From the NCBI GenBank assembly GCA_963816185.1, contig CAWFJJ010000001.1:320001-384000 (forward strand): 64,000 nucleotides of DNA, given 5' to 3'. Made by a program: the position numbers and the translations under genes. Position 1 is the first letter of the stretch; each line of letters begins with the position of its first letter. Under the pieces are notes generated by a model. It ran no database searches, was not told the DNA's origin, and saw only the letters and a list, made by a program, of their open reading frames with translations. Positions 2,310-38,512 of this stretch are shown piece after piece. Origin of the DNA: Thermoanaerobaculia bacterium (lineage in GTDB: Bacteria > Acidobacteriota > Thermoanaerobaculia > UBA5066).

Positions 2310-2378
2310 AACTTCACGGCGCACCCTGTCGGCAGGCCTCGCGTGTGAAGGCGTCGCCTCGTCCTAGAATCCGATGCG

Positions 2379-3257
2379 ATGACTGTCGTTGCGATGTGCT
2401 CCGCCGGCATCGCCCTCTTCCTGATCGGCGGAGTCGCCGCGAGACGCGAGGTCGCCGGTGCGCGCGGCCTGGACAAGATCGTGGCCTTGACCAATTTGTG
2501 TTTCGGCGTCCCGCTGGCGGTCTTCGGCGCGCTGCATCTCTTCGGTCCGCGCGTCGTCATCGACGCCGTGCCAGCCTTCATGCCCTGGCGTTCGTTCTGG
2601 GTGGTGTTCGTCGGGTGCGCGCTGATCGCGGCGTCCCTGAGCATCGCCACCGGGATCGCGGTCCATTGGTCGGGCCTGCTCTTCGGAATCATGATGTTCC
2701 TGTTCGTCGCGACGATCCATCTTCCGGGTGCCCTGCGCCAGCCTCACGACAGGTTCATCTGGACGATCGTCTTCCGCGAGATGGCGTTCGGCGGGGGCGG
2801 CTGGCTTCTCGCGGGGCTCGCAGCGGACGGACGGCGCGGGGAGAGCCGGAGTGCGCTGATCGCCGTGGGCCGCGTCCTTGTCACGATGGCGTTGATCGTC
2901 TTCGGCATCGAGCACTTCGCGTACGCGACGGGGCTTCCCGGGGTCCCGCTCAGGAAGGAGATGCCGGCGTGGATCCCGGGGCGCGAGATCATCGACCGGG
3001 TGACGGGCGCGGCGCTCCTCCTGGCCGCGGGAAGCGTCCTGGCGGGCAGGCAGACGCGGAGGGTGGCGACCTGGGTCGGCGCTTGGATCCTGCTGATGGT
3101 CCTCGTGATCTACGGGCCGGTCCTGGTCGTGGCGCTTTCCGACCCAAAGCTCGGCGTCCGGCTGGAGGGGGTCAACTACTTCGCCGACACGCTTCTGTTT
3201 GCCGGGACGGTCCTCGCGCTGGCAAAGGCGACGCCACACCGCCCGCGGCCGTCCTGA
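2379..3257 (+). CDS. Multi-pass membrane protein, DoxX-like with internal duplication
   Basis: Two similar halves (FGALHLF..VPAFMPWRSFW / FGIEHF..MPAWIPGREII); about 9 hydrophobic segments; TAGAAT 8 nt upstream of ATG. Confidence 0.65.
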   Translation: MTVVAMCSAGIALFLIGGVAARREVAGARGLDKIVALTNLCFGVPLAVFGALHLFGPRVVIDAVPAFMPWRSFWVVFVGCALIAASLSIATGIAVHWSGLLFGIMMFLFVATIHLPGALRQPHDRFIWTIVFREMAFGGGGWLLAGLAADGRRGESRSALIAVGRVLVTMALIVFGIEHFAYATGLPGVPLRKEMPAWIPGREIIDRVTGAALLLAAGSVLAGRQTRRVATWVGAWILLMVLVIYGPVLVVALSDPKLGVRLEGVNYFADTLLFAGTVLALAKATPHRPRPS

Positions 3258-21451: not shown

Positions 21452-21784
21452 GTGAGAGCTGGTCTCGTCCGCGTCGCCGTGCTGGCCCTGCTCGCGCCGC
21501 TGGCGCTGGGCGGAGCGTTCGGGCACGTCGACGGCTTCGAGGTCCTCTCGCACGGCGCACACCTCTTCGCTCCCGACCATCCGGCCCACGCTCCGTTCGT
21601 CCCCGAGAAGGAACACCCGTGCGCAGCATGCGCCGTCGCGAATCTGACGCCTCCTGCTTTTGCGACCCTCCTCCTCGTTCCGCCGATCGTGGGGATCACT
21701 CGCGAGACGCAGTGGTCTTGGAGGGCGCCGACGCCCGCGCTTCCGGAACTCACTGGCCGCTCTCCGCCTATCCCGACCGCGTAG
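21452..21784 (+). CDS. Leader ORF 1 (110 aa): signal-like N-terminus, His-rich/CAAC core, C-terminal RSPP; DUF2946/CruR-like putative arrest peptide
   Basis: C-terminal part of track ORF 20201..21784; GTG 21452 lies 8 nt after TAAACT; paralog of 31965..32303 and 34991..35326. Confidence 0.8.
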   Translation: MRAGLVRVAVLALLAPLALGGAFGHVDGFEVLSHGAHLFAPDHPAHAPFVPEKEHPCAACAVANLTPPAFATLLLVPPIVGITRETQWSWRAPTPALPELTGRSPPIPTA

Positions 21785-21855: not shown

Positions 21856-22995
21856 ATGACCATTCGGTCATCACCGCTGAAAACGCTGTTCCTTCTTACT
21901 GTTCTCCTGCTCGCGGCGCATCCTGTCGCCGCGCAGACGGAACCTCCCCCGGCGGCGCCCGCACCCGACAGCCCGCCGCCTCAGGCGGGGGGCGGCGGAA
22001 GCCAGACGACGAACTACTTCAACCCCAGCGTCTCGGTCATCGGGAATTTCCTCGCCGTAGGGGGCCAGAACCAGGTTGAAAACCTGCCCAACGCGAGCCT
22101 GCGGGAATCGGAGCTCGGTCTCCAGGCGATCGTCGACCCATACGGGCGAGCCGATTTCTTTCTCTCCTTCGGCGAGCAGGGCGTCGAGGTGGAAGAGGGC
22201 TTCCTGACTTTCACCTCTCTGCCCGCGGGCCTGCTCGCGAAGGTGGGACGGATGCGCGTGTCGTTCGGCAAGATCAACACCCTTCACCTGCACGTGCTCC
22301 CGTGGCCGGACTCCCCCCTCCCGATCGTCAACCTCCTGGGAGGCGAGGAAGGGTGGATCGGAACGGGCGTCTCCCTCGCCGAGCTCGTGCCCTTGCCCGG
22401 AGATACGTTCTCGGAGATCACCGGACAGGTCTTCCGCGGGGATTCGGCGGGGTTGTTCGTCGCCCAGAAGCGGAGCGACCTCGCTTACAACGGGCACTAC
22501 CGGATCTTCCGCGACCTGAGCGACTCCACGAACCTCGACCTCGGTTTCTCCTACGGGCAGGGCCCGAACGGAATCGCCTCGAACGCGATGACGCGCCTCG
22601 AGGGAATCGATGCGACGTTTCGATGGAAGCCGCTCGTGCGCGGCACGTACCGCTCCGCTTCTTTGAGAGGGGAGTTCGTTCGCAGCAGGCGAGACCAGCC
22701 CGACGGCCGCCAGACGGCGCAAGGGTGGTTTCTCTCCGGCGAGTACCAGCTTGCCCAACGCTGGTTCGCCGGAGCGCGACTCGAGTCGTCCGACCACGCG
22801 GACGATTCCGCGAAGCGCGACACGGGCGTCGCCGCCACGCTGACCTTCTGGCCGAGCGAGTTCTCCCAGCTTCGCGGGGAGTTCCGGCGCCGCCGCTACG
22901 AAGGCTATCCGGGCGCGCCCGATATCTATACTGCCAACGAGGTCCTTCTCCAGGTGCAATTTGCGATCGGCGCGCACGGCGCGCATCCGTTCTGA
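21856..22995 (+). CDS. Putative zinc-regulated outer-membrane beta-barrel receptor/porin
   Basis: Signal peptide; FNPSVSVIGN, ELGLQAIVDPY, EVEEGFL, FGKINTLHLH, PSEFSQLR, C-terminal IGAHGAHPF; first gene of a ZnuA/ZnuB operon. Confidence 0.75.
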   Translation: MTIRSSPLKTLFLLTVLLLAAHPVAAQTEPPPAAPAPDSPPPQAGGGGSQTTNYFNPSVSVIGNFLAVGGQNQVENLPNASLRESELGLQAIVDPYGRADFFLSFGEQGVEVEEGFLTFTSLPAGLLAKVGRMRVSFGKINTLHLHVLPWPDSPLPIVNLLGGEEGWIGTGVSLAELVPLPGDTFSEITGQVFRGDSAGLFVAQKRSDLAYNGHYRIFRDLSDSTNLDLGFSYGQGPNGIASNAMTRLEGIDATFRWKPLVRGTYRSASLRGEFVRSRRDQPDGRQTAQGWFLSGEYQLAQRWFAGARLESSDHADDSAKRDTGVAATLTFWPSEFSQLRGEFRRRRYEGYPGAPDIYTANEVLLQVQFAIGAHGAHPF

Positions 22996-23005
22996 GGAAG
23001 GTTTC

Positions 23006-23920
23006 ATGAAAACGTTCAAGCTTCTGTTCGCCGCCCTTCTCCTTTCCTTCGCCTCGCCTCTCCTGGCGAAGATCCACGTCGTGTCGTCCCTCCAGGACTT
23101 CGCCTCGATCGCGGAGGCGATCGGGGGCGACCGGGTGGAGACGTACGCGCTGGCGAAGGGATATCAGGACCCGCATTTCGTGGACGCCAAGCCCTCGTTC
23201 ATCCTGAAGCTTTCCCGCGCCGACGTCCTGATCGTCGCCGGCCTCGAGCTCGAGATCGGATACCTGCCGCCGCTGATCGACCAGAGCCGCAACGACAGGA
23301 TTCACGTCGGCAGCGCCGGATATCTGGATGCTTCGATCGGCTGCGACATCCTCCAGCGGCCGACTCGGCAGGTCACACGCGCGATGGGTGACGTGCATCC
23401 GTACGGGAACCCGCACTACTGGACCGATCCGGAAAACGGCCGTGTGATCGCCTGGGCCGTCGCCGAGAAGCTGTCCGAGCTCGATCCCTCCGGGAAAGCC
23501 GTCTTCGAGAAGAACCTCGCCGCGTTCGAAGGGCTTCTGACCCAGAAAGAGAAGGAATGGAACGCGAAGATGGGTCCCTACGCGGGGACGAAGGTCGTGA
23601 CCTTCCACGACTCCTGGCCGAACTTCGCGAAGTACTTCAAGCTCGAAATCGCCGGGCACATCGAGCCGAAGCCGGGCATTCCGCCCACGCCCTCTCACAC
23701 ACTCGAGATCATCAACTTGATCCAGGCGCAGAAGATCCCGGTGATCCTCGTCGAACCCTACTTCGACAGCAAGACGCCGAAGTACATCGCACAGAAGACC
23801 GGCGCCGCGGTGGTCACGTTCTATCCGTCGGTCGGCGGGATACCGGAGATCAAGGACTACTTCGCGCTCTTCGATCACAACATCGACGCCTTCGTCGCGG
23901 CAAACAAGGCAAAGAAATAG
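23006..23920 (+). CDS. Metal ABC transporter substrate-binding protein (ZnuA/TroA family)
   Basis: QDPHFVDAKPS, GLELEIG, GDVHPYGNPHYWTDP, TFHDSW, IEPKPGIPPTPSH. Confidence 0.92.
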   Translation: MKTFKLLFAALLLSFASPLLAKIHVVSSLQDFASIAEAIGGDRVETYALAKGYQDPHFVDAKPSFILKLSRADVLIVAGLELEIGYLPPLIDQSRNDRIHVGSAGYLDASIGCDILQRPTRQVTRAMGDVHPYGNPHYWTDPENGRVIAWAVAEKLSELDPSGKAVFEKNLAAFEGLLTQKEKEWNAKMGPYAGTKVVTFHDSWPNFAKYFKLEIAGHIEPKPGIPPTPSHTLEIINLIQAQKIPVILVEPYFDSKTPKYIAQKTGAAVVTFYPSVGGIPEIKDYFALFDHNIDAFVAANKAKK

Positions 23921-23924
23921 ACAG

Positions 23925-24755
23925 ATGACGATCCTTCAGCTCCTCCTTCCTGCGTTCGTCGCGAGCCTCATCCTCACGGGAATCCACGCCTATCTCGGCG
24001 TTCACGTGGTCGAGCGGGGCGTCATCTTCGTGGACCTCTCGCTCGCGCAGATCGCGGCTCTCGGCACGACGGTCGCGTACCTCGCCGGATACGACCTGCA
24101 CTCCACGGCCGCTTACGTCTTCTCCCTCGGCTTCACGTTCCTAGGAGCCGCGATCTTCGCGTTCTCCCGCGTCCACCGTAAGACCCGCATCCCGCAGGAG
24201 GCGATCATCGGCATCGTCTACGCGGTCTCGGCGGCGGTCGCCATCCTCGTGATGTCGAAAGCGACGCAAGAGACGGAGCACCTGAAGGAGATGCTCGTCG
24301 GCAACATTCTTTCGGTGACGTGGGGGGAGCTGGCGAAGACCGCGTTTCTCTATTCCCTGGTGGGCCTGTTTCATTACATCTTCCGAAAGCGATTCCTCCT
24401 GATCTCGATGAACGAGCCGGAAGCGGAGCGGCAGGGCCTGAACATCCGGTGGTGGGACTTTCTCTTTTACATGTCCTTCGGATTCGTCGTGACGTCGTCG
24501 GTTGCGATCGCCGGCGTGCTCCTCGTCTTCTGCTTCCTCATCGTGCCTTCGGTGACCGCGATGCTCTTCGCCGAGCGGCTCGGGCCGAGACTCGCGATCG
24601 GCTGGACGATGGGAGTCGTCGTGTCGGCGCTCGGGGTGTGGTTCTCGTTTCAGCTCGACCTTCCGACCGGAGCGACCATCGTTGGAACCTTCGGGGCCGC
24701 GCTTCTCGTCATCGCGGGTTATCGGCGGGCGTTCCGGAAGCCGGCCGCCGCCTGA
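23925..24755 (+). CDS. Metal ABC transporter permease (ABC-3, ZnuB/MntB family)
   Basis: YLGVHVVERGVIFVDLSLAQIAALG, QEAIIGIVY, GVLLVFCFLIVP, LDLPTGATIV. Confidence 0.9.
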   Translation: MTILQLLLPAFVASLILTGIHAYLGVHVVERGVIFVDLSLAQIAALGTTVAYLAGYDLHSTAAYVFSLGFTFLGAAIFAFSRVHRKTRIPQEAIIGIVYAVSAAVAILVMSKATQETEHLKEMLVGNILSVTWGELAKTAFLYSLVGLFHYIFRKRFLLISMNEPEAERQGLNIRWWDFLFYMSFGFVVTSSVAIAGVLLVFCFLIVPSVTAMLFAERLGPRLAIGWTMGVVVSALGVWFSFQLDLPTGATIVGTFGAALLVIAGYRRAFRKPAAA

Positions 24756-31889: not shown

Positions 31890-31980
31890 CCTCCACGAAG
31901 AAAGCCTCTGATCGCGGAGGGTGCGTACCCCCCGACCGTGAATGACGACGTCGGAACGTGTCTTCTAAACGGCCAGGGAG
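31890..31980 (-). promoter_or_regulatory. Putative four-segment translational attenuator downstream of leader ORF 2
   Basis: mRNA CUCCCUGGCCGU (31980-69) pairs ACGGUCGGGGGG (31939-28); CGGGGGGU pairs ACCCUCCG (31922-15); CCUCCGCGA (31920-12) pairs UCGUGGAGG containing the SD (31898-90). Confidence 0.68.
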
Positions 31981-32303
31981 ACGGGGGGCGCGCGGGCGGG
32001 AAGCTCGGGAGCGGGGGCGAAGGTGATAGTCCGCTCGGCGCGGATCTCGAGCGCGCGGCGGACCTCGGGTGGGACGAGGAAGAGCGGTGCGGCTGTGGGT
32101 GCTACCAGCGAGGCGATCGCGCAGGCCGCGCAGGGGTGCTCCTTCTCCGGCACGAACGGCGCATGCGCGGGATGGTCCGGCGGGAAGAGGAACGTGCCGT
32201 GCGACAGCGTCTCGAAGCCGTCGACGTGCCCGAACGCGCCGCCGAGAGCGATCGGCGCGAGGGCGAGGACGACCAGCAGGCGCCGGAACCGGGTCAATCG
32301 CAC
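31965..32303 (-). CDS. Leader ORF 2 (112 aa): His-rich/CAAC core, C-terminal RAPP; DUF2946/CruR-like putative arrest peptide
   Basis: ...HVDGFETLSHGTFLFPPDHPAHAPFVPEKEHPCAAC...PELPARAPPVSLAV; lies 86 nt upstream of the TBDR; TAGGAT 6 nt before GTG. Confidence 0.85.
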   Translation of the reverse strand: MRLTRFRRLLVVLALAPIALGGAFGHVDGFETLSHGTFLFPPDHPAHAPFVPEKEHPCAACAIASLVAPTAAPLFLVPPEVRRALEIRAERTITFAPAPELPARAPPVSLAV

Positions 32304-32338: not shown

Positions 32339-34426
32339 TTACGGAAGGATCGTTCTCGGGTCGTTCGTGGTGTTGTCGATGACCGCGGCATACGTCGCGA
32401 TCTGCGCGCCGGCCGTCGCGGTCGACACGACGAGGACCGCGTTCGTCGTGCCGAAAGGCGCGAGAAGCGTGGTGACGACGTTGCCGACCTGCGTCATCCC
32501 GAGCGGGGGCAGCGTCCGGGTCGTGGTGCCGAAAGTCGAGCCGTCCGCAGCGAGCAGCGTGAGCGTGACGTCCACGCTCAAGGCCGTCGCGTTCGCGAGG
32601 ACGACGTTCGTGCGGAATGCCGTGTCGTCACGAAGGCCGATGAGCGCTTTGGGCGTGCCCGGCATGACGAGGTCGTTCGCGCCCTCGGCCGGAACGGACT
32701 GGCCGAAAGTGCCGGCGCCGCCCGCCGCCGGTGTCGAGGTCTGGCTGACCACTTTGAGCGACGCCGAGTCGGCTGTGATCAAGATCGCGCCATAGTTCTG
32801 GGGATCCGTGGGGCTGACCCCGAAGAGCGAGGCGAGAATGTCGGCATAGGTCACGGCCTTGTTCGCCGCGAGCGCGCGGACCTGCTTCGGGCCCCCGGTG
32901 CCGTCCTGGTCGTGGCCCAGGAACTGGAGCGTGAGATTCGCGTCCGTCGTGCCGCGGTTCGCGATCGTCAGGTCCGTCGTGTAGAAGGCGCCGTTCTTGC
33001 CGGCGGCGTGGGCGCTCGAGGGCAGGATGTACGTGGTCGTCGGGCCGCCCGAGCCGGCGAACCAGCCGATGTCGTTGAACAGGGGAAGTGTGGCGTCGAC
33101 TCCGCTCGGCAGGTCGGACGAGATGTACGGCTCCATGAGAAGGCTCGGGGACGCCGTCGAGTCGAAGTGCGACACCGACGAACCCTGTACATACGGGTTC
33201 GGTGCGTAGAGAAGCAGGCGGCCGGCGGCGTCCGTGCCGGCGAGAAGCGTCGGGTCCGTACCCAGATTTGCCGAATCGGGCAGGTTCGCGCGGAGGGTCG
33301 CGCCGTCGCTCATGGTGACGAGGATGGACGGGATCGTGATCGTGGCGTCCGTGCCGGACATTCCGAACAGAGGCTCGGTCGTGTTGTCCGCGATGATGGC
33401 GCCGATCGCGCCCGCGTTCTGGGCGTTCTTGGCCTTGACTGTAAAATTACAGGTTCCGCGGTCGATGAGCGCGATCTGGCCGGAGACATTCGACGTGATC
33501 GGGCTGCACCCGTCCGTGGCGAATCCGTAGAGGGCCGCGACGATCTGCCCGGTGACGCCCGGGTTTGAGAGCGCCGGCCCGAAGGAGGCGGTGCCGACGG
33601 AGTAGGAGCCGGACGCCGCCCCAGCGGTCACGAGAAGGCGCCGCCTCTTGCCGAGATACGTGCCCGCGAACGCGTTCGCCGCCGTCCCCGACCACGTCAG
33701 GTTGCCCGTGTTGAGCTCGGACGCCGCGCGCTCGGCGTCCGTGAGCTTGTCCCACGTCTTACCGAGCGTGTCGTCGTAGATGAAGCGGTCGAAGATGGTC
33801 GGCTGCGGCGTCGGCTGCGATGACGTGCTGCCGAGGAGCGCGCCCGTCGAATCCACGCCCGAGAAGAACCCGAGCCCGTGGGCGAACTCGTGTACGGCGA
33901 CCGAGAGGAAATTGATGTCCGACCCGGCGAGGTTGTCGAGGCCGAGGTAAAACGAGAGACCCGTCAGGCAGCCTGTCTGTCCGAGGCTGCTGTTGAAACG
34001 CGCCGTCATGTCGACCGTGGCGGGGTCCTGGTCAGAACCCACGAACTTGTTCGCGAGAGCCTTCGCGTACCACGTTCCCGCGACGGGGGCACCCGCAAAA
34101 TCGGCGTAGACCGTATTCGCGTAGGTCGATCCGAGGATGCCGGAGGTCGCGCTGCACGCGAGGGGAGTAAAGCTCGCGCTCACGCGGATCGTGACATTGC
34201 TCGTCAGGAGCCCTCCCCAGATCGCGCCGGCCTGCTGGAATACGTTGAGGCGTTGCTGCCCGAGCGTCGTGCCCGTGTTGCCGCCGACGGGCGAGACCGG
34301 AGTCGGGTCGTTGAGGCCGGTTCCCGCAGGATCGGAATTGACGATGACGAAAGCCGCGCCGGCGAAAAGCGGCCGGGCGGCGAGAGACGCAAGGAGGAGG
34401 AGCGGCAAGAGCGAGCGTCGCGCCAT
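32339..34426 (-). CDS. Secreted zinc metallopeptidase with PA domain and lineage-type C-terminal domain
   Basis: Signal peptide; VAVHEFAHGLGF (HExxHxxG); PA domain IALIDRGTCNFTVKAKNAQNAGAIGAII; GSSVSHFD, LMEP; C-terminal ...YAAVIDNTTNDP. Confidence 0.85.
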   Translation of the reverse strand: MARRSLLPLLLLASLAARPLFAGAAFVIVNSDPAGTGLNDPTPVSPVGGNTGTTLGQQRLNVFQQAGAIWGGLLTSNVTIRVSASFTPLACSATSGILGSTYANTVYADFAGAPVAGTWYAKALANKFVGSDQDPATVDMTARFNSSLGQTGCLTGLSFYLGLDNLAGSDINFLSVAVHEFAHGLGFFSGVDSTGALLGSTSSQPTPQPTIFDRFIYDDTLGKTWDKLTDAERAASELNTGNLTWSGTAANAFAGTYLGKRRRLLVTAGAASGSYSVGTASFGPALSNPGVTGQIVAALYGFATDGCSPITSNVSGQIALIDRGTCNFTVKAKNAQNAGAIGAIIADNTTEPLFGMSGTDATITIPSILVTMSDGATLRANLPDSANLGTDPTLLAGTDAAGRLLLYAPNPYVQGSSVSHFDSTASPSLLMEPYISSDLPSGVDATLPLFNDIGWFAGSGGPTTTYILPSSAHAAGKNGAFYTTDLTIANRGTTDANLTLQFLGHDQDGTGGPKQVRALAANKAVTYADILASLFGVSPTDPQNYGAILITADSASLKVVSQTSTPAAGGAGTFGQSVPAEGANDLVMPGTPKALIGLRDDTAFRTNVVLANATALSVDVTLTLLAADGSTFGTTTRTLPPLGMTQVGNVVTTLLAPFGTTNAVLVVSTATAGAQIATYAAVIDNTTNDPRTILP

Positions 34427-34433
34427 GTTTCGC

Positions 34434-34898
34434 CTATTTCTCCCGGCTCGCGGGGGGCGGGGCGGGCTGGGGCGAGGCCTCGAGGAAGATTCGCGCCTCG
34501 TCGGCGCCGCGAACGCAGGCGCTCGTGAGGGTTCCGTCCGGGTTCTTCCGGATTACGGAAAGGCTGGCCTGATCCGGGCCGAGCCGCATCATCTTCGTTC
34601 CGTCCGGCAACGTGATGACCTGCGGCTCGGCCGCGACCAGAGGGCGTCGTCCGAGAAGCTGGCGGGCCTCTTCGGGGGTCAGGGGACGGAGTGCTCCGGT
34701 CACGGGATCGCGCGCCACGGTCAGGGAGATCCCGGGCGCGGCCGAGGGCTTCACCGTAGCGGGAGCCGCAGCCTTCCTCGTTGCGGACTCCTTCGGCGCA
34801 GCGCTTGTCGCGGGCTCGTCCGCGCGGGCCGGGAAAGAGAGGAGAAGAAAGACGAGAATCGAAGGGGCGGAATGTCGCGCCGTTCGGAGGAGGATCAT
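34434..34898 (-). CDS. Small secreted protein (post-PEP-CTERM-1-like), partner of the PA peptidase
   Basis: Signal peptide; VARDPVTGALRPLTPEEARQL, LPDGT, KNPDGTLTSAC; AGGGAG SD. Confidence 0.65.
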   Translation of the reverse strand: MILLRTARHSAPSILVFLLLSFPARADEPATSAAPKESATRKAAAPATVKPSAAPGISLTVARDPVTGALRPLTPEEARQLLGRRPLVAAEPQVITLPDGTKMMRLGPDQASLSVIRKNPDGTLTSACVRGADEARIFLEASPQPAPPPASREK

Positions 34899-34990
34899 TT
34901 GTCTGGTCTCCCTATGTCGGCAAGAGCCTGCGCCGAGAGCGAGGCTGCTCGACCTTCGAAGAAATCCGTTTTACGACTGATGAAGGTCGG

Positions 34991-35326
34991 CTACGCGCGA
35001 GCCAGGCAGGGAGGGGAGCGTCCGGGAAGCTCGGGGAGAATTGGAGCGTGCTGCACGCGCTCGGCGTGAACCGGATGCGCGAGACGGATTTCGGGCGGAC
35101 TCAGGAAGAGGGGTGCGATGACCGGCGGCAGGAGGTTTGCTACCGCGCAGGCGGCGCACGGGTGCTCCTTCTCGGGCACGAACGGCGCGTGCGCGGGGTG
35201 GTCCGGCGGGAAGAGGAACGTGCCGTGCGACAGCGTCTCCAAGCCGTCGACGTGCCCGAACGCGCCGCCGAGAGCGATCGGCGCGAGGGCCGCGAGGACG
35301 ACGATCCGGAAGAGCCGCCTTTTCAT
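34991..35326 (-). CDS. Leader ORF 3 (111 aa): His-rich/CAAC core, C-terminal RSPP; paralog of leaders 1 and 2
   Basis: Core nearly identical to leader 2, with mostly third-position changes; PELPGRSPPCLARA; TAGAAT 10 nt before ATG. Confidence 0.85.
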   Translation of the reverse strand: MKRRLFRIVVLAALAPIALGGAFGHVDGLETLSHGTFLFPPDHPAHAPFVPEKEHPCAACAVANLLPPVIAPLFLSPPEIRLAHPVHAERVQHAPILPELPGRSPPCLARA

Positions 35327-35449
35327 CGCCGTTGAGATTCTATCTCGTCAGAAGAGCACGGCCGGCCCCGAGGTGTCGTTCAGCAGTTTCGGGAAAGGCT
35401 TTCACGCGGGCCTGCCCTCTTGACGAGCCGCGCCTAGAATGCGCGAGAT

Positions 35450-35824
35450 ATGCGCCGCCTGAGGGAGGTTTCGGCCGCGCTCCTCCTCGCCGTCTTGGCG
35501 ACTGCGGCCATCCTGCCGCTCGCCGCGTCGGGCGCCGCGTGCCACAGGTGCCACTGCGCGGTGCGGATGGCCTGCTGCGAGGACGGCACGTGCACGATGG
35601 GCGAGGAGCCGCCTGCGGGCGGACCCGAGTGGCGCACTTGCCGGCGCGAGGCGCCGACGTCCGCGGCGTCGGCGCTCGACGCGTTCGACCGGGCGCTGAG
35701 AGGGGGTTCCTTCGAAGGAAAAGACAGGGAGCCCGCCGCTCGAAGCGTAGAGCTTCAGCCCGCCCGGCCGCGCACCACCACACCGAATCCTGAAACGCCC
35801 CCTCCCCGCGTCTTCTCTTTCTAA
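35450..35824 (+). CDS. Leader ORF 4 (124 aa): signal peptide, Cys/His cluster, C-terminal PETPPPR; putative arrest peptide
   Basis: CHRCHCAVRMACCEDGTC; ends PNPETPPPRVFSF; divergent from leader 3; TAGAAT 9 nt before ATG. Confidence 0.75.
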   Translation: MRRLREVSAALLLAVLATAAILPLAASGAACHRCHCAVRMACCEDGTCTMGEEPPAGGPEWRTCRREAPTSAASALDAFDRALRGGSFEGKDREPAARSVELQPARPRTTTPNPETPPPRVFSF

Positions 35825-35859
35825 GAAATTCCTCTCTTCGAATTTCCTCGGAAGGAGAA
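35813..35859 (+). promoter_or_regulatory. SD-sequestering hairpin overlapping the last codons of leader 4
   Basis: TTCTCTTTC 35813-21 pairs GAAGGAGAA 35851-59 (SD), enclosing GAAATTC 35825-31 / GAATTTC 35840-46. Confidence 0.62.
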
Positions 35860-35866
35860 CCGCATC

Positions 35867-36868
35867 GTGAAGACGGTCAAGGTGTTTCGCTTTCTATGTC
35901 TCGTCCCCGCAGCTTTTCTCGTTCTCCCCTCGAACGCCGGCCTGGCCTGCGCCTGCGGCTGCAGCGTGTTCGACGTCGGCGCCGGCACGATGATGCCGGT
36001 GAGCTCCGAGTCAGGTTTCTCTCTCTGGCTCCGCTACAGCTACATGAACCAGAACCGGAACTGGGAGGGCGGCTCCCGGGCGCCGGCCTCGGACAACCCG
36101 GACGTCCAGATCAAGACCAGCTTCTACACCTTCGGAGGCAGCTACATGGTGGACCGGTCCTGGTCCGTGATGGCCGAGCTGCCGGTCTATTCCCGCAAGT
36201 TCACGTCGACCGACGACGGCACCGTCGCCGGCCCGGCCGGCAGCCTCTACACCGCCAATCTGACCGATCTCGGCGACATGTCGCTCTCGGTCATGTACAC
36301 GGGGTTCTCACCGGACATGTCGACCGGGCTTGGCCTCGGCGTCAAGCTGCCGACGGGCAACTACACGGGGCCGTCCGGCCCGCTCGGCGGCTCGGAGTTC
36401 GACCGCGACACGCTGCCCGGCACGGGCAGCACCGATCTCGTGCTGGGCTCCTATCACGTCGGCGGGCTCAATTCCGACGGCTCGCTCGCCTGGTTCGCGC
36501 AGGCGCGGTACGAGTTCGCGGCCTTCACCCGGAACGACTACCGACCCGGCAACGACCTGAACGGCGCGCTCGGGTTGACGTGGAGTTTCAGCGCCGGCGC
36601 GTCGCAGACGAGGATGACGCCGGTCCTGCAGATGATCGGAAGCTACCGGGAAAGAGACAGCGGCGCCAACTCGGACCCGGACAACTCCGGATACAAACGC
36701 CTGCTCCTCGCGCCTGGCGTCGAGGCGCGGCTCGGGAAGATCCGTCTCTACGCCGACGTCGAATTTCCCGTGTATCAATTCACCAACGCCGCGGCGAGCG
36801 GGAGCGACAAGGCGGGGCAGCTCGTGGCGTCGACGTTTCTCAAGGCGCAGATCGCGTACGATTTCTAG
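35867..36868 (+). CDS. Putative outer-membrane beta-barrel (MetA/phenol-pathway-like transporter) with N-terminal CACGC motif
   Basis: Signal peptide then ACACGCS; DLGDMSL, GLGVKLPTG, PGTGSTD; C-terminal aromatic QIAYDF. Confidence 0.7.
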   Translation: MKTVKVFRFLCLVPAAFLVLPSNAGLACACGCSVFDVGAGTMMPVSSESGFSLWLRYSYMNQNRNWEGGSRAPASDNPDVQIKTSFYTFGGSYMVDRSWSVMAELPVYSRKFTSTDDGTVAGPAGSLYTANLTDLGDMSLSVMYTGFSPDMSTGLGLGVKLPTGNYTGPSGPLGGSEFDRDTLPGTGSTDLVLGSYHVGGLNSDGSLAWFAQARYEFAAFTRNDYRPGNDLNGALGLTWSFSAGASQTRMTPVLQMIGSYRERDSGANSDPDNSGYKRLLLAPGVEARLGKIRLYADVEFPVYQFTNAAASGSDKAGQLVASTFLKAQIAYDF

Positions 36869-36903
36869 ACGGCCGACGGCATGGGAGAGAACGGATTGTG
36901 AAA

Positions 36904-37416
36904 ATGACGCGCTCGGTCCTGACTTCCGCAGTGATCCTCGCGATGCTGGCCGGTCCGGCCGCGGGCGCGCCCGCGCTCGGCGAGCCGGCGCCGGCGCTCG
37001 TCGTGCCCCTGATCGATGGCGCAGGATTCGATCTCGGCGTGCTCCGCGGCAAGGTCGTGATCGTGAATTTCTGGGCGACGTGGTGCCCGCCGTGCCGGAA
37101 GGAGATGCAAGCACTCGACGCCTTCTTCGCCCGGTTCCACGCCCGCGGCGTCGAGATGGTCGGAACGAGCGTCGATCGCAAGCGGGACCGCAAGGCCGTG
37201 CTCAAGGCGGCGCGGGCGGTGCGCTATCCCGTCGCGCTTCTGGCCGACGCCGTAGCCAACGGCTTCGGCAAGCCCGCCGTCCTGCCCGTGACCTACGTCG
37301 TCGATCGGGCGGGCGTCGTCCGCGCCGTCCTGACGCCAGACGCGGGTGCGGTCACCGAGAGCTCCCTCGAACAGACCGTGGCGCCCCTCCTTTCGGGCGG
37401 TCACCCCGGCCTCTAG
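36904..37416 (+). CDS. TlpA/ResA-family thiol-disulfide oxidoreductase
   Basis: LRGKVVIVNFWATWCPPCRKEM, LPVTYVVDRAG. Confidence 0.9.
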   Translation: MTRSVLTSAVILAMLAGPAAGAPALGEPAPALVVPLIDGAGFDLGVLRGKVVIVNFWATWCPPCRKEMQALDAFFARFHARGVEMVGTSVDRKRDRKAVLKAARAVRYPVALLADAVANGFGKPAVLPVTYVVDRAGVVRAVLTPDAGAVTESSLEQTVAPLLSGGHPGL

Positions 37417-37426
37417 AATCCTCTCC

Positions 37427-38512
37427 ATGTTGAAAAGCCGTCGCGCGTTCCTCGAGGAAGTCTCGTTCGCCTCGCTCATCGCCGGTTTTCCCCTGCCCGC
37501 CCAGGCCGCGCTCGCGCGCTACGCGGAGAGGCCGCCCGACCCCGTGTACCCGAAGGCGCTGCGGCCCGGCATGACGGTCGCGCTCGTCGCGCCCTCGTCG
37601 CCCTCTTGGAATCCCGACCGGAACGACGTCGCCGTCGAGGTCGTCGAGTCGATGGGATTCAAGGCGAAGCTGTTCCCGCACGCGCGGGAAGCCACGAACT
37701 ATCTCGCGGGAAGCGACGAGCACCGCGCCGCGGACGTGAATGCCGCGTTCGCGGATTCGTCCGTCGACGCGATCTTCTGCCTGCGCGGCGGGTACGGCGC
37801 CTCGCGCATCCTCCCGCTCCTCGACTACGAGACGATCCGGAAGAACCCGAAGGTCTTCATCGGCTACAGCGACATCACCGCCCTCCTGAACGCGATCCAC
37901 CGCCTCACGGGCCTCGTGACGTTCCACGGGCCCATCGGCGGCGAGATGCAGAGCGACTACACGCTCGCGGCGTTCAAGAAGGTGCTCTCGCAGACAAGCG
38001 CGGCCGGGCGCGTCGCCGATCCGCCGCCGTTCAAGCCCTCAGAGGGGCACGTCGACGTGGAGAACCGCATCTACAGGCTCGCTCCGGGAAAAGGGAAGGG
38101 CCGGCTCGTGGGCGGCAACATCAGCGTCTTCTCCACGCTCGTGGGAACGCCGTTCGAGCCGGAGCTCAAGGGCCGCGTCCTCTTTCTCGAGGAAGTGGGC
38201 GAAGAGCCCTACCGTATCGACCGCTGGCTCACGCAGTTCCTCCTGACGGGGAAGCTCTCGGGCCTCGCCGGCGTGGCGCTGGGGAAGTTCCACGACTGCG
38301 GCCCGAAGGACTACAAGCCGAGCTTCCCCGGCATGGGCACGTGGACGTGGCAGGAAGTCTGCCGGGACCGCCTCGGCAAGCTCGGCATCCCCGTCGTCGC
38401 GAACCTCGTCTTCGGGCACGTCACCGACAAGGCGACTCTTCCGCTCGGCGTCATGGCCGAGCTCGACGGCGACGCGGGCACGCTCACGCTGCTGGAGGCC
38501 GCGGTCCGGTGA
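37427..38512 (+). CDS. S66 LD-carboxypeptidase (LdcA/MccF-like), twin-arginine signal
   Basis: SRRAFL; VAPSS, RGGYGA, FIGYSDIT, FHGP, GGN, LFLEEVGE, FGH. Confidence 0.9.
   Translation: MLKSRRAFLEEVSFASLIAGFPLPAQAALARYAERPPDPVYPKALRPGMTVALVAPSSPSWNPDRNDVAVEVVESMGFKAKLFPHAREATNYLAGSDEHRAADVNAAFADSSVDAIFCLRGGYGASRILPLLDYETIRKNPKVFIGYSDITALLNAIHRLTGLVTFHGPIGGEMQSDYTLAAFKKVLSQTSAAGRVADPPPFKPSEGHVDVENRIYRLAPGKGKGRLVGGNISVFSTLVGTPFEPELKGRVLFLEEVGEEPYRIDRWLTQFLLTGKLSGLAGVALGKFHDCGPKDYKPSFPGMGTWTWQEVCRDRLGKLGIPVVANLVFGHVTDKATLPLGVMAELDGDAGTLTLLEAAVR

Follow-up and report, generated by a model that had tools for sequence, protein, structure and literature searches.

A candidate CutF-like nascent-chain sensor upstream of a cysteine-motif outer-membrane channel in Thermoanaerobaculia

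The 64,000-nucleotide stretch of a Thermoanaerobaculia genome analysed here (the window, to which all positions refer) contains an open reading frame (ORF) of 124 amino acids, ORF124, which encodes an exported, Cys/Met-rich leader protein and is followed on the same strand by the gene for an outer-membrane beta-barrel with an N-terminal CACGC motif. By analogy with CutF of Rhodobacter capsulatus, ORF124 probably works as a nascent-chain sensor and cis-acting translational switch. A first-pass annotation of the window had proposed such a sensor, and the conserved, exported, Cys-rich ORF, the invariant PPPR near its C-terminus, the conserved pairing of its end with the next gene's Shine-Dalgarno (SD) sequence and the CutF-like anatomy all stood, while a promoter shared with a divergent leader, a back-to-back arrangement of leaders as a rule and a TlpA reductase as a fixed target did not. 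The leader and its RNA element comprise the following parts.

35450..35824, + strand: ORF124, exported Cys/Met-rich leader protein (124 amino acids and stop), from translation, GC content at third codon positions (GC3), homologues and the ratio of nonsynonymous to synonymous divergence (dN/dS)
35450..35536, + strand: predicted export signal (residues 1-29) with MRRLRE as the n-region, a hydrophobic core at 8-27 and the small residues SGA, from sequence inspection and an AlphaFold2 (AF2) helix
35540..35641, + strand: Cys/Met cluster, residues 31-64 (C34, C36, M40, C42, C43, C48, M50, PEWRTC64RRE), from invariant or at least 90% conserved columns
35702..35788, + strand: variable linker, residues 85-113, free in sequence and constrained in length
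35789..35809, + strand: PxTPPPR, residues 114-120, proposed ribosome pause site, from invariance and dN/dS
35813..35859, + strand: SD-sequestering hairpin (outer stem 35813-22/35850-59, inner stem 35825-31/35840-46, loop 35832-39)
35852..35858, + strand: Shine-Dalgarno sequence AAGGAGA of the barrel gene, invariant in 15 of 15 loci

The ORF124 protein family

Judged by its composition and its homologues, ORF124 is a real gene under protein-level selection. Its GC3 is 0.83, against 0.60 and 0.64 in two long overlapping frames, and it is present as a single copy in the host genome (5.09 Mb). The sequencing runs listed for 35300-37400 are four DNA metagenomes of a single study. The protein begins with MRRLRE and a 20-residue hydrophobic stretch, continues with AACHRCHCAVRMACCEDGTC, includes AACHRCHCAVRMACCEDGTCTM and, farther on, PEWRTCRRE, and ends in PNPETPPPRVFSF. 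Every element that the first-pass annotation had listed was found in its place, namely a 124-residue ORF with a signal peptide, a Cys motif and a C-terminal PPPR, lying 123 bp from a divergent gene called leader 3 (ORF111; start at 35326 on the - strand, versus 35450 on the + strand for ORF124). AF2 predicts a confident helix at residues 2-26 (predicted local distance difference test, pLDDT, 86-90) and nothing folded beyond two helices in the protein as a whole (mean pLDDT 59.5). ORF124 matched no Pfam family (E<=0.1) and no NCBIfam family, and Rfam returned no matches at E<=1 in the neighbourhood scanned (34800-36100); in the ESM Atlas, the closest clusters were unnamed ones from Acidobacteriota, with DUF6660 and DUF6769 at 0.93 serving as leads only. 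Two other identities were considered and rejected: a lipoprotein, as C31 is not conserved, and a PEP-CTERM sorting signal, raised by the PETPPP string and a nearby post-PEP-CTERM gene, as only four residues follow PPPR and NCBIfam gave no match.

A word-indexed search recovered 45 homologous clusters at E<=0.01 (52-73% identity, nearly all of about 124 residues), none of which carries a Pfam domain; their sole name is "hypothetical protein", and two are labelled as Thermoanaerobaculia metagenome-assembled genomes. In an exhaustive profile search of 1.84 billion representative proteins, the family comprised 17 clusters at E<=0.001, mostly from one Thermoanaerobaculia family, and it was present in 20 of 401 genomes of the class, including 17 of the 38 genomes scored in the host's own family. 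The window protein and 33 of the 45 matches were aligned (34 sequences), the omitted matches (P0004, 7, 11, 13, 16, 21, 22, 24, 27, 28, 34, 42) having mostly partial query coverage. In this alignment, M50, P55, R62, C64, R66, A82, P114, P117, P118, P119 and R120 are invariant, while G33, C34, C36, V38, M40, C42, C43, E44, G46, T47, C48, T116 and F124 are at least 90% conserved, and the cluster follows the pattern CxCxVRMxCCxxGxCxM. The motif had been described as Cys-only, which says too little, since M50 is invariant, M40 is nearly so and H35 is the majority residue (<90% conserved). The Cys motif is retained in distant relatives.

Across 15 distinct loci, dN/dS was 0.18 in the Cys region, 0.03 in PPPR and 0.86 in the linker (residues 85-113). 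The Pro and Arg codons of PPPR do carry synonymous differences, so that selection acts on the peptide itself. The motif is followed by a tail of four residues in 32 of the 34 close sequences. In the distant set, a run of at least two Pro followed by R or E lies 1-9 residues from the C-terminus in 10 of 12 representatives, and in 8 of those 10 it reads PPPR. Its distance from the Cys/Met cluster is similarly constrained: counted to the first Pro of PPPR, the close set has 66-71 residues from C48 and 49-53 from C64, while 67-73 residues separate the last Cys of CCxxGxC from the last Pro in 10 of the 12 distant representatives, the two exceptions being one with a variant Cys motif (outside the form of the regular expression) and one without a Pro run. 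On this pattern, the linker, near-neutral in sequence yet fixed in length, is a length ruler.

Two further observations concern the coding sequence itself. The codon for P118 (35801-35803) is CCT in 12 of the 15 loci but accounts for only 5 of 139 Pro codons in six window genes; it creates CCUCCC, which is complementary to the SD sequence, and could be a slow codon or a second anti-SD. In one genome (G176; loci L007, L024 and L037), the ORF124 homologue is broken into two frames near residue 72, with hairpin and SD intact, through either a frameshift or an assembly error.

Pairing of the leader's last codons with the downstream Shine-Dalgarno sequence

The last codons of ORF124 form one side of a hairpin that buries the SD sequence of the barrel gene, ORF333. 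In the outer stem, 35813-35822 (UUCUCUUUCU) pairs with 35850-35859 (GGAAGGAGAA) over 10 bp, including two G-U pairs, and the 5' arm consists of codons F122-S123-F124 and the first base of the stop codon; the inner stem adds 7 bp. ORF333 begins with GTG at 35867, 8 nt past the SD and after a 42-nt spacer. The minimum free energy of 35770-35900 is -36.3 kcal/mol (z = -2.94), with 1 of 200 shuffles folding equally well, and a partition-function model of the free mRNA gives the SD core (35852-58) a probability of being unpaired of 0.00. A second anti-SD in the first codons of the barrel gene was considered as a designed element and rejected, since 86 of 100 shuffles folded equally well and the pairing is not conserved.

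Conservation of the hairpin was assessed in 15 distinct close loci, aligned from the last codons to the next start codon after removal of duplicates. The pairing of the last ORF codons with the SD of the next gene, which the first-pass annotation had described in the window, is kept in all 15. When the window structure is imposed on them, 91.0% of 255 cells pair, compared with 43-68% after a shift of the 3' partner by 1-3 columns, and the hairpin free energy is -14.2 to -22.1 kcal/mol in 13 of the 13 loci folded. The 3' end forms a better duplex with the SD than most sites elsewhere in the same ORF do, with 0-16 of 101-102 control windows of the same length pairing equally well. Compared pairwise, the loci are 90% identical in the 5' arm, 88% in the arm that holds the SD and 79% in the inner stem, whereas the loop reaches 56% and the SD-to-start spacer 67%; at synonymous sites of the adjoining ORF124, the proportion of differences (pS) is 0.45. 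Codon choice points to a constraint at the RNA level: S123 is encoded by TCT in 11 of the 15 loci, although TCT makes up only 5 of 147 Ser codons in six confident window genes, and F124 is TTC in all 15. Moreover, the altered tails VFFF (L005), AFPF (L016) and LVSF (L014) still give the duplex, which in L005 becomes a continuous 17-bp helix. Given that altered tail peptides still pair and that TCT and TTC are preferred, FSF is best read as an anti-SD written in codons, and PxTPPPR as the peptide motif.

A similar logic may operate in a second RNA architecture. In another genus of the same family, ORF124 homologues (E 1e-16 to 1e-22) with the Cys cluster and PPPR have unrelated tails of six residues (for example TSIAPR or NSILPC) and are followed, after a spacer of about 85-90 nt, by a gene for a TonB-dependent receptor, identified by CarboxypepD_reg and Plug domains in the one locus scanned against Pfam and by similar N-termini in nine loci. 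RNAalifold, applied to seven of these distant loci, closes the whole spacer by a helix in which CUCCAUCGC, from the tail codons, pairs with GCGAUGGAG at the SD, with one compensatory G-C to C-G pair; 84.1% of 63 cells pair, compared with 32-52% when slid. Support for this helix is moderate. In both architectures, counting from the first base of the penultimate Pro codon, the core anti-SD starts 10-12 nt downstream, where the mRNA entry (helicase) side of a ribosome paused on Pro-Pro would lie.

Known sensors and competing explanations

The closest parallel is CutF (cutFOG operon), in which control depends on every one of four features, namely signal peptide, Cys motif, C-terminal PPP and a stem-loop covering the cutO SD (PMC9973294; 10.1101/2025.02.05.636593). 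Mature CutF was undetectable or quickly degraded. ORF124 resembles CutF in its size (<150 residues), predicted Sec export, Cys motif and C-terminal PPP, as well as in the short spacer that leads to a same-strand envelope-protein gene with its SD buried in a stem-loop. It also falls within the rule-based definition of CutF-like proteins given in Ozturk 2023 (PMC9973294), with 124 residues, PPP at 117-119, a 42-nt spacer and a signal peptide recognised by inspection and by the AF2 helix at residues 2-26. The two differ in the Cys motif (CxCx5CCx4C plus two Met in ORF124, CxxxC in CutF), in the position of the 5' arm of the stem, which in the ORF124 locus lies within the coding sequence, in the apparently leaderless mRNA of ORF124, and in the target, which is a COG4313-like channel or a TonB receptor for the ORF124 family and a multicopper oxidase for CutF.

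CruR (Bp2923) of Bordetella pertussis, a DUF2946 protein, offers a second comparison. As described in PMC9426467, it is likewise an exported upstream ORF with a Cys motif and a C-terminal Pro arrest motif at conserved spacing, and genes for TonB-dependent transporters and AhpC_TSA proteins are typical partners of its homologues. In the same source, the hallmark of DUF2946 proteins is CXXC and RAPP separated by 45 residues, a spacing that is functionally important, and CruR acts via Rho, whereas ORF124 has PPPR, a ruler of about 70 residues and an SD hairpin. Specifically, ORF124 contains CxC, CC and CxxxxC rather than CXXC, and PPPR four residues from its end rather than RAPP three from the end (Roy 2022); its TPPPR is also none of the RAPP-type arrest motifs (RAPP, RGPP, RAGP). 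Two other leaders of the window, ORF111 and ORF112, fit the CruR motifs better (CAAC, 42 residues, R[AS]PP, 5-residue tail), and ORF124 has no profile similarity to the RAPP/RSPP leaders of the window (hhalign probability 0.5%). SecM, MifM, VemP and the RAPP-type peptides share with the proposed switch a chain arrested near its C-terminus that opens an SD-hiding hairpin, with release by the pulling force of export (10.1101/2025.02.05.636593; PMC12992588). However, they monitor the export machinery through RAGP, RAPP, RGPP or idiosyncratic motifs, while ORF124 has PxTPPPR and the targets of its family are not Sec or YidC components. The literature searched contained nothing that links such leaders to Acidobacteria, or a PPPR motif to a COG4313-like channel.

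Several results weigh against a sensor of this kind. ORF124 does not match DUF2946 (PF11162), and none of 34 family members did so at E<=10; a PF11162 scan of the whole genome gave two sub-threshold matches, neither of them in the window. As ORF124 fits the CutF anatomy but shows no detectable similarity to DUF2946, it was classed by its presumed working and not by family, and is filed as a protein that would work like CutF without being a member of the CutF family. PMC9973294 reports that the CutF proline motif gave no arrest in LepB fusions, that is, out of context. Changes on both sides of a pair were seen in 0 of 17 pairs of the close set, and the case for the close-set hairpin thus rests on conservation and codon bias, not on covariation. 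When the 5' arm is masked in the equilibrium model, the SD can re-pair with early barrel codons and its probability of being unpaired rises only to about 0.1. In the distant subgroup, 23 of 500 shuffles reach the pairing observed for the helix, and its duplex energy is not specific, as 13-73 of 99 control windows from the same GC-rich ORFs match the SD equally well. AF2 gives no confident fold at residues 31-66 (pLDDT 43-56), by which a stable metal-bound protein is neither demonstrated nor ruled out. Finally, a ribosome terminating at the ORF124 stop codon would cover 35819-35834 and open the stem unaided, and, as any ribosome that reaches the stop would do so, translational coupling would account for the hairpin without a sensor.

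Plain coupling of this type would make ORF124 a periplasmic Cys/Met-rich metal binder or chaperone that partners the channel, with the hairpin fixing their stoichiometry and PPPR serving as a structural or recognition motif. In classical coupling through an SD-occluding stem, the downstream SD likewise unfolds only if the upstream cistron is translated, and the strong protein-level selection on the Cys region, the envelope location of every partner and a Cys/Met ligand set like that of periplasmic Cu(I) binders all agree with plain coupling. Coupling requires, however, no conserved pause motif, export signal or length ruler, and leaves unexplained the invariant PxTPPPR 1-9 residues from the end in every subgroup, the constant offset of the anti-SD from PPPR in two RNA architectures and the fixed length of a near-neutral linker; AF2 shows no fold beyond two helices. 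We regard plain coupling as unlikely, though less so than the two explanations that follow.

A CruR-like control of transcription is improbable. Here, a paused ribosome would block Rho or an RNase at the pyrimidine-rich, G-poor intergenic RNA, and the output would be continuation or stability of the transcript. The composition of 35810-35866 (9 G and 16 C in 57 nt, 44% GC versus 68% in the window) and the structured spacer of about 90 nt in the distant subgroup are compatible with such a mode, which CruR uses according to PMC9426467. Nevertheless, in both subgroups it is the SD itself that takes part in the conserved pairing, and the scan found no terminator-like site after ORF124 on the + strand. 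A spacer of 42 nt is, in addition, short for Rho loading. Very improbable is a hairpin that merely stabilises or marks the mRNA for processing, or is kept by close relatedness alone beside a non-regulatory ORF124: the loci are indeed relatives within one family and the close set lacks double compensatory changes, but identity is 88-90% in the stems and 56% in the loop, with a pS of 0.45 at synonymous sites, the rare TCT is kept, the fold has a z of -2.94 and a like logic recurs in a different RNA architecture.

Operon, neighbouring leaders and a possible mechanism

The following features surround ORF124.

35867..36868, + strand: ORF333, outer-membrane beta-barrel with N-terminal CACGC and a COG4313/FapF-like fold, from AF2 and Foldseek
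36901..37416, + strand: TlpA/ResA-like periplasmic thiol-disulfide oxidoreductase with WCPPC, from PF00578 (1.9e-21) and PF08534 (2e-17), AhpC-TSA/Redoxin
34991..35326, - strand: ORF111 (leader 3), divergent neighbour of the CAAC...RSPP class
35435..35440, + strand: -10-like box TAGAAT of ORF124, 9 nt before the ATG, from the comparison of loci
35342-35337, - strand: TAGAAT box of ORF111
2365-2381 (+), 35324-35342 (-), 35435-35452 (+) and 37414-37429 (+): the four TAGAAT-N6-10-ATG sites of the window

ORF333 is predicted by AF2 as a barrel (pLDDT 73.6, predicted template modelling score 0.75). Foldseek matched it to FapF (5o65_B, E 5e-11) and to the Pseudomonas putida COG4313 channel (4rl8_C, E 6e-9, TMt 0.75), folds that it resembles without a Pfam match of its own at E<=0.1; among the 120 homologues listed for it, two carry PF13557 and one PF13505. 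The family comprises 1391 clusters at E<=1e-5 from several phyla, none of them named, and C28-A29-C30-G31-C32 is invariant in 40 sequences (the window protein and 39 of the 120 listed). In these CxCGC barrels, the Cys triad directly follows the predicted signal-peptide cleavage site. The oxidoreductase, a thioredoxin-fold protein, is assigned at family level only, because its scores against the TlpA and ResA equivalogs fall below the cut-offs.

In all 24 readable loci, the same-strand gene downstream of the ORF124 homologue encodes an outer-membrane protein, distributed among four kinds as follows.

8 loci: this barrel (type A)
6 loci: a distant relative starting CSICRCGDPTFN (type B)
9 loci: a TonB-dependent receptor
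1 locus: another Cys-motif barrel

The TlpA reductase, which the first-pass annotation had named as a target beside the CACGC barrel, is not a fixed companion: it follows the type-A barrel in 4 of the 7 loci with sequence past the barrel, and an ORF111-like gene does so in the other 3. None of the 17 foreign barrel loci examined has an ORF124-like gene upstream of the barrel, which itself was found in 19 of 401 genomes of the phylum sample. In one of these loci (L044, from genome G024 of the same order), another Cys/His/Met-rich ORF, of 129 residues, lies 46 nt upstream of the CACGC barrel, with a signal-like N-terminus, HCPMECH...CCPM...CC and no C-terminal Pro run; this may be a third kind of leader.

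ORF124 probably heads a leaderless mRNA with its own promoter, in an operon that ends before 37414, because TAGAAT boxes lie at 35435 and at 37414. In 13 of 15 loci, the element GGCTAGAAT precedes the ATG by 7-10 nt, regardless of the upstream gene, with TAAAAT in one locus and no such element in another, and TAGAAT-N6-10-ATG occurs four times in the window against 0.08 expected. The boxes emerged from the comparison of loci only, as a strict sigma-70 scan found no promoter-like sites. Three of the four sites stand at ORF starts read here, and leaderless mRNAs with a TAGAAT -10 box seem to be common in the organism; the site before the LD-carboxypeptidase gene (37427) overlaps the TlpA stop codon. 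A (T/C)TGAC(G/A) hexamer (35420-35425; also in L004, L006, L014 and L016) lies 8-11 nt upstream of TAGAAT, too near for a -35 element; it may bind a regulator or extend the promoter. ORF124 and ORF111 each have a box 9-10 nt before the ATG, with about 95 bp between the two, and the shared divergent promoter once proposed for the 123-bp spacer is not supported, the two -10 boxes being separate. The back-to-back arrangement of the leaders exists in the window but is not the rule: of 17 loci, 5 (the window, L008, L010, L014 and L034) have an ORF111-like gene divergent from the ORF124 homologue, another 5 (L002, L003, L007, L016 and L023) have it downstream on the same strand, and in the remaining 7, several of them short contigs, it was not seen. 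The two leader classes tend to cluster, but without fixed wiring.

ORF111 is one of three paralogous exported leaders in the window, together with ORF112 (31965-32303, -) and a third at about 21518-21784 (+). Their common layout, GHVDG...HPAH...HPCAAC, 42 residues, R[AS]PP and a 5-residue tail, is a CruR-like arrangement of motifs, and none of the three matched PF11162. The minimum-free-energy fold at leader 3 pairs its RSPP codons (CCCUCCCU) with AGGGAGA, the SD of the following gene, with a z of just -0.92 for the whole region; the spacers after the other two leaders have z of -3.7 and -3.0. Leader 3 is followed by a post-PEP-CTERM-1 domain protein (34434-34898, -; NF047450, 9e-20) and a 695-residue PA-domain metalloprotease-like protein (32339-34426, -) with paralogues of its C-terminal part at three more places in the window. 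After leader 1, 21856-24755 (+) encodes an unannotated protein of 379 residues, a binding protein of the ZnuA family (PF01297, 6.5e-51) and a product that resembles a membrane permease, and, given the ZnuA-family gene, leaders of the His/Cys class may be reporters of zinc or of a related metal.

For ORF124 as a sensor, the most likely mechanism is the following. The gene would head a leaderless operon of three genes, running from ORF124 through the CACGC outer-membrane channel to the TlpA-like reductase. In the free mRNA, the last three ORF124 codons and the stop would bury the strong SD of the channel gene, which has a weak GTG or TTG start. A ribosome pausing at PxTPPPR, with P118 and P119 in the P and A sites, would have its mRNA entry side 11-15 nt downstream, at the base of the outer stem (35813 onward), and would thereby keep that stem open and the SD exposed. 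How long it pauses would be determined by the Cys/Met cluster, which lies about 70 residues upstream. As about 70 residues suffice to span the ribosomal tunnel and SecYEG, the cluster would already be on the periplasmic side while the ribosome decodes PPP, and binding of a soft metal such as Cu(I), or failed disulfide formation, would take away the force, from pulling or folding, by which the pause is normally released. The host genome encodes two elongation factor P (EF-P) genes, both above the family cut-off. Pause, ligand (Cu(I) or thiol redox) and sign of the regulation are our inferences. A thiophilic metal or periplasmic thiol redox state is suggested as the signal by the six Cys (five in the motif and C64) and two Met of the leader, the thiol reductase and the Cys-motif channels. 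The genes for TonB transporters and AhpC_TSA proteins that adjoin cruR homologues (PMC9426467) point the same way.

More tentatively, ORF124 could represent an independently evolved, non-DUF2946 family of arrest-peptide sensors with a ruler of about 70 residues, encoded beside an unrelated RAPP/RSPP class with one of 42; the two geometries would presumably serve different signals. This is a possibility that we put forward with some doubt. Regulation by exported nascent chains that report periplasmic conditions is newly recognised, and experiments so far have dealt with CutF and CruR, both of them DUF2946 proteins. Another family, unrelated in sequence, in which an export signal and a thiol cluster are combined with a ruler, a Pro pause and an SD hairpin would, if real, mean that the principle evolved more than once, and the natural comparison of rulers (about 70 versus about 42-45 residues) would make the sensing site, translocon or periplasm, directly testable. 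In the organism itself, two nascent-chain sensors (for example one for Zn and one for Cu(I) or thiol redox) would then set outer-membrane permeability without a transcription factor, and ORF124 would provide the first functional clue to the large, uncharacterised family of CxCxC outer-membrane channels, with its 1391 clusters.

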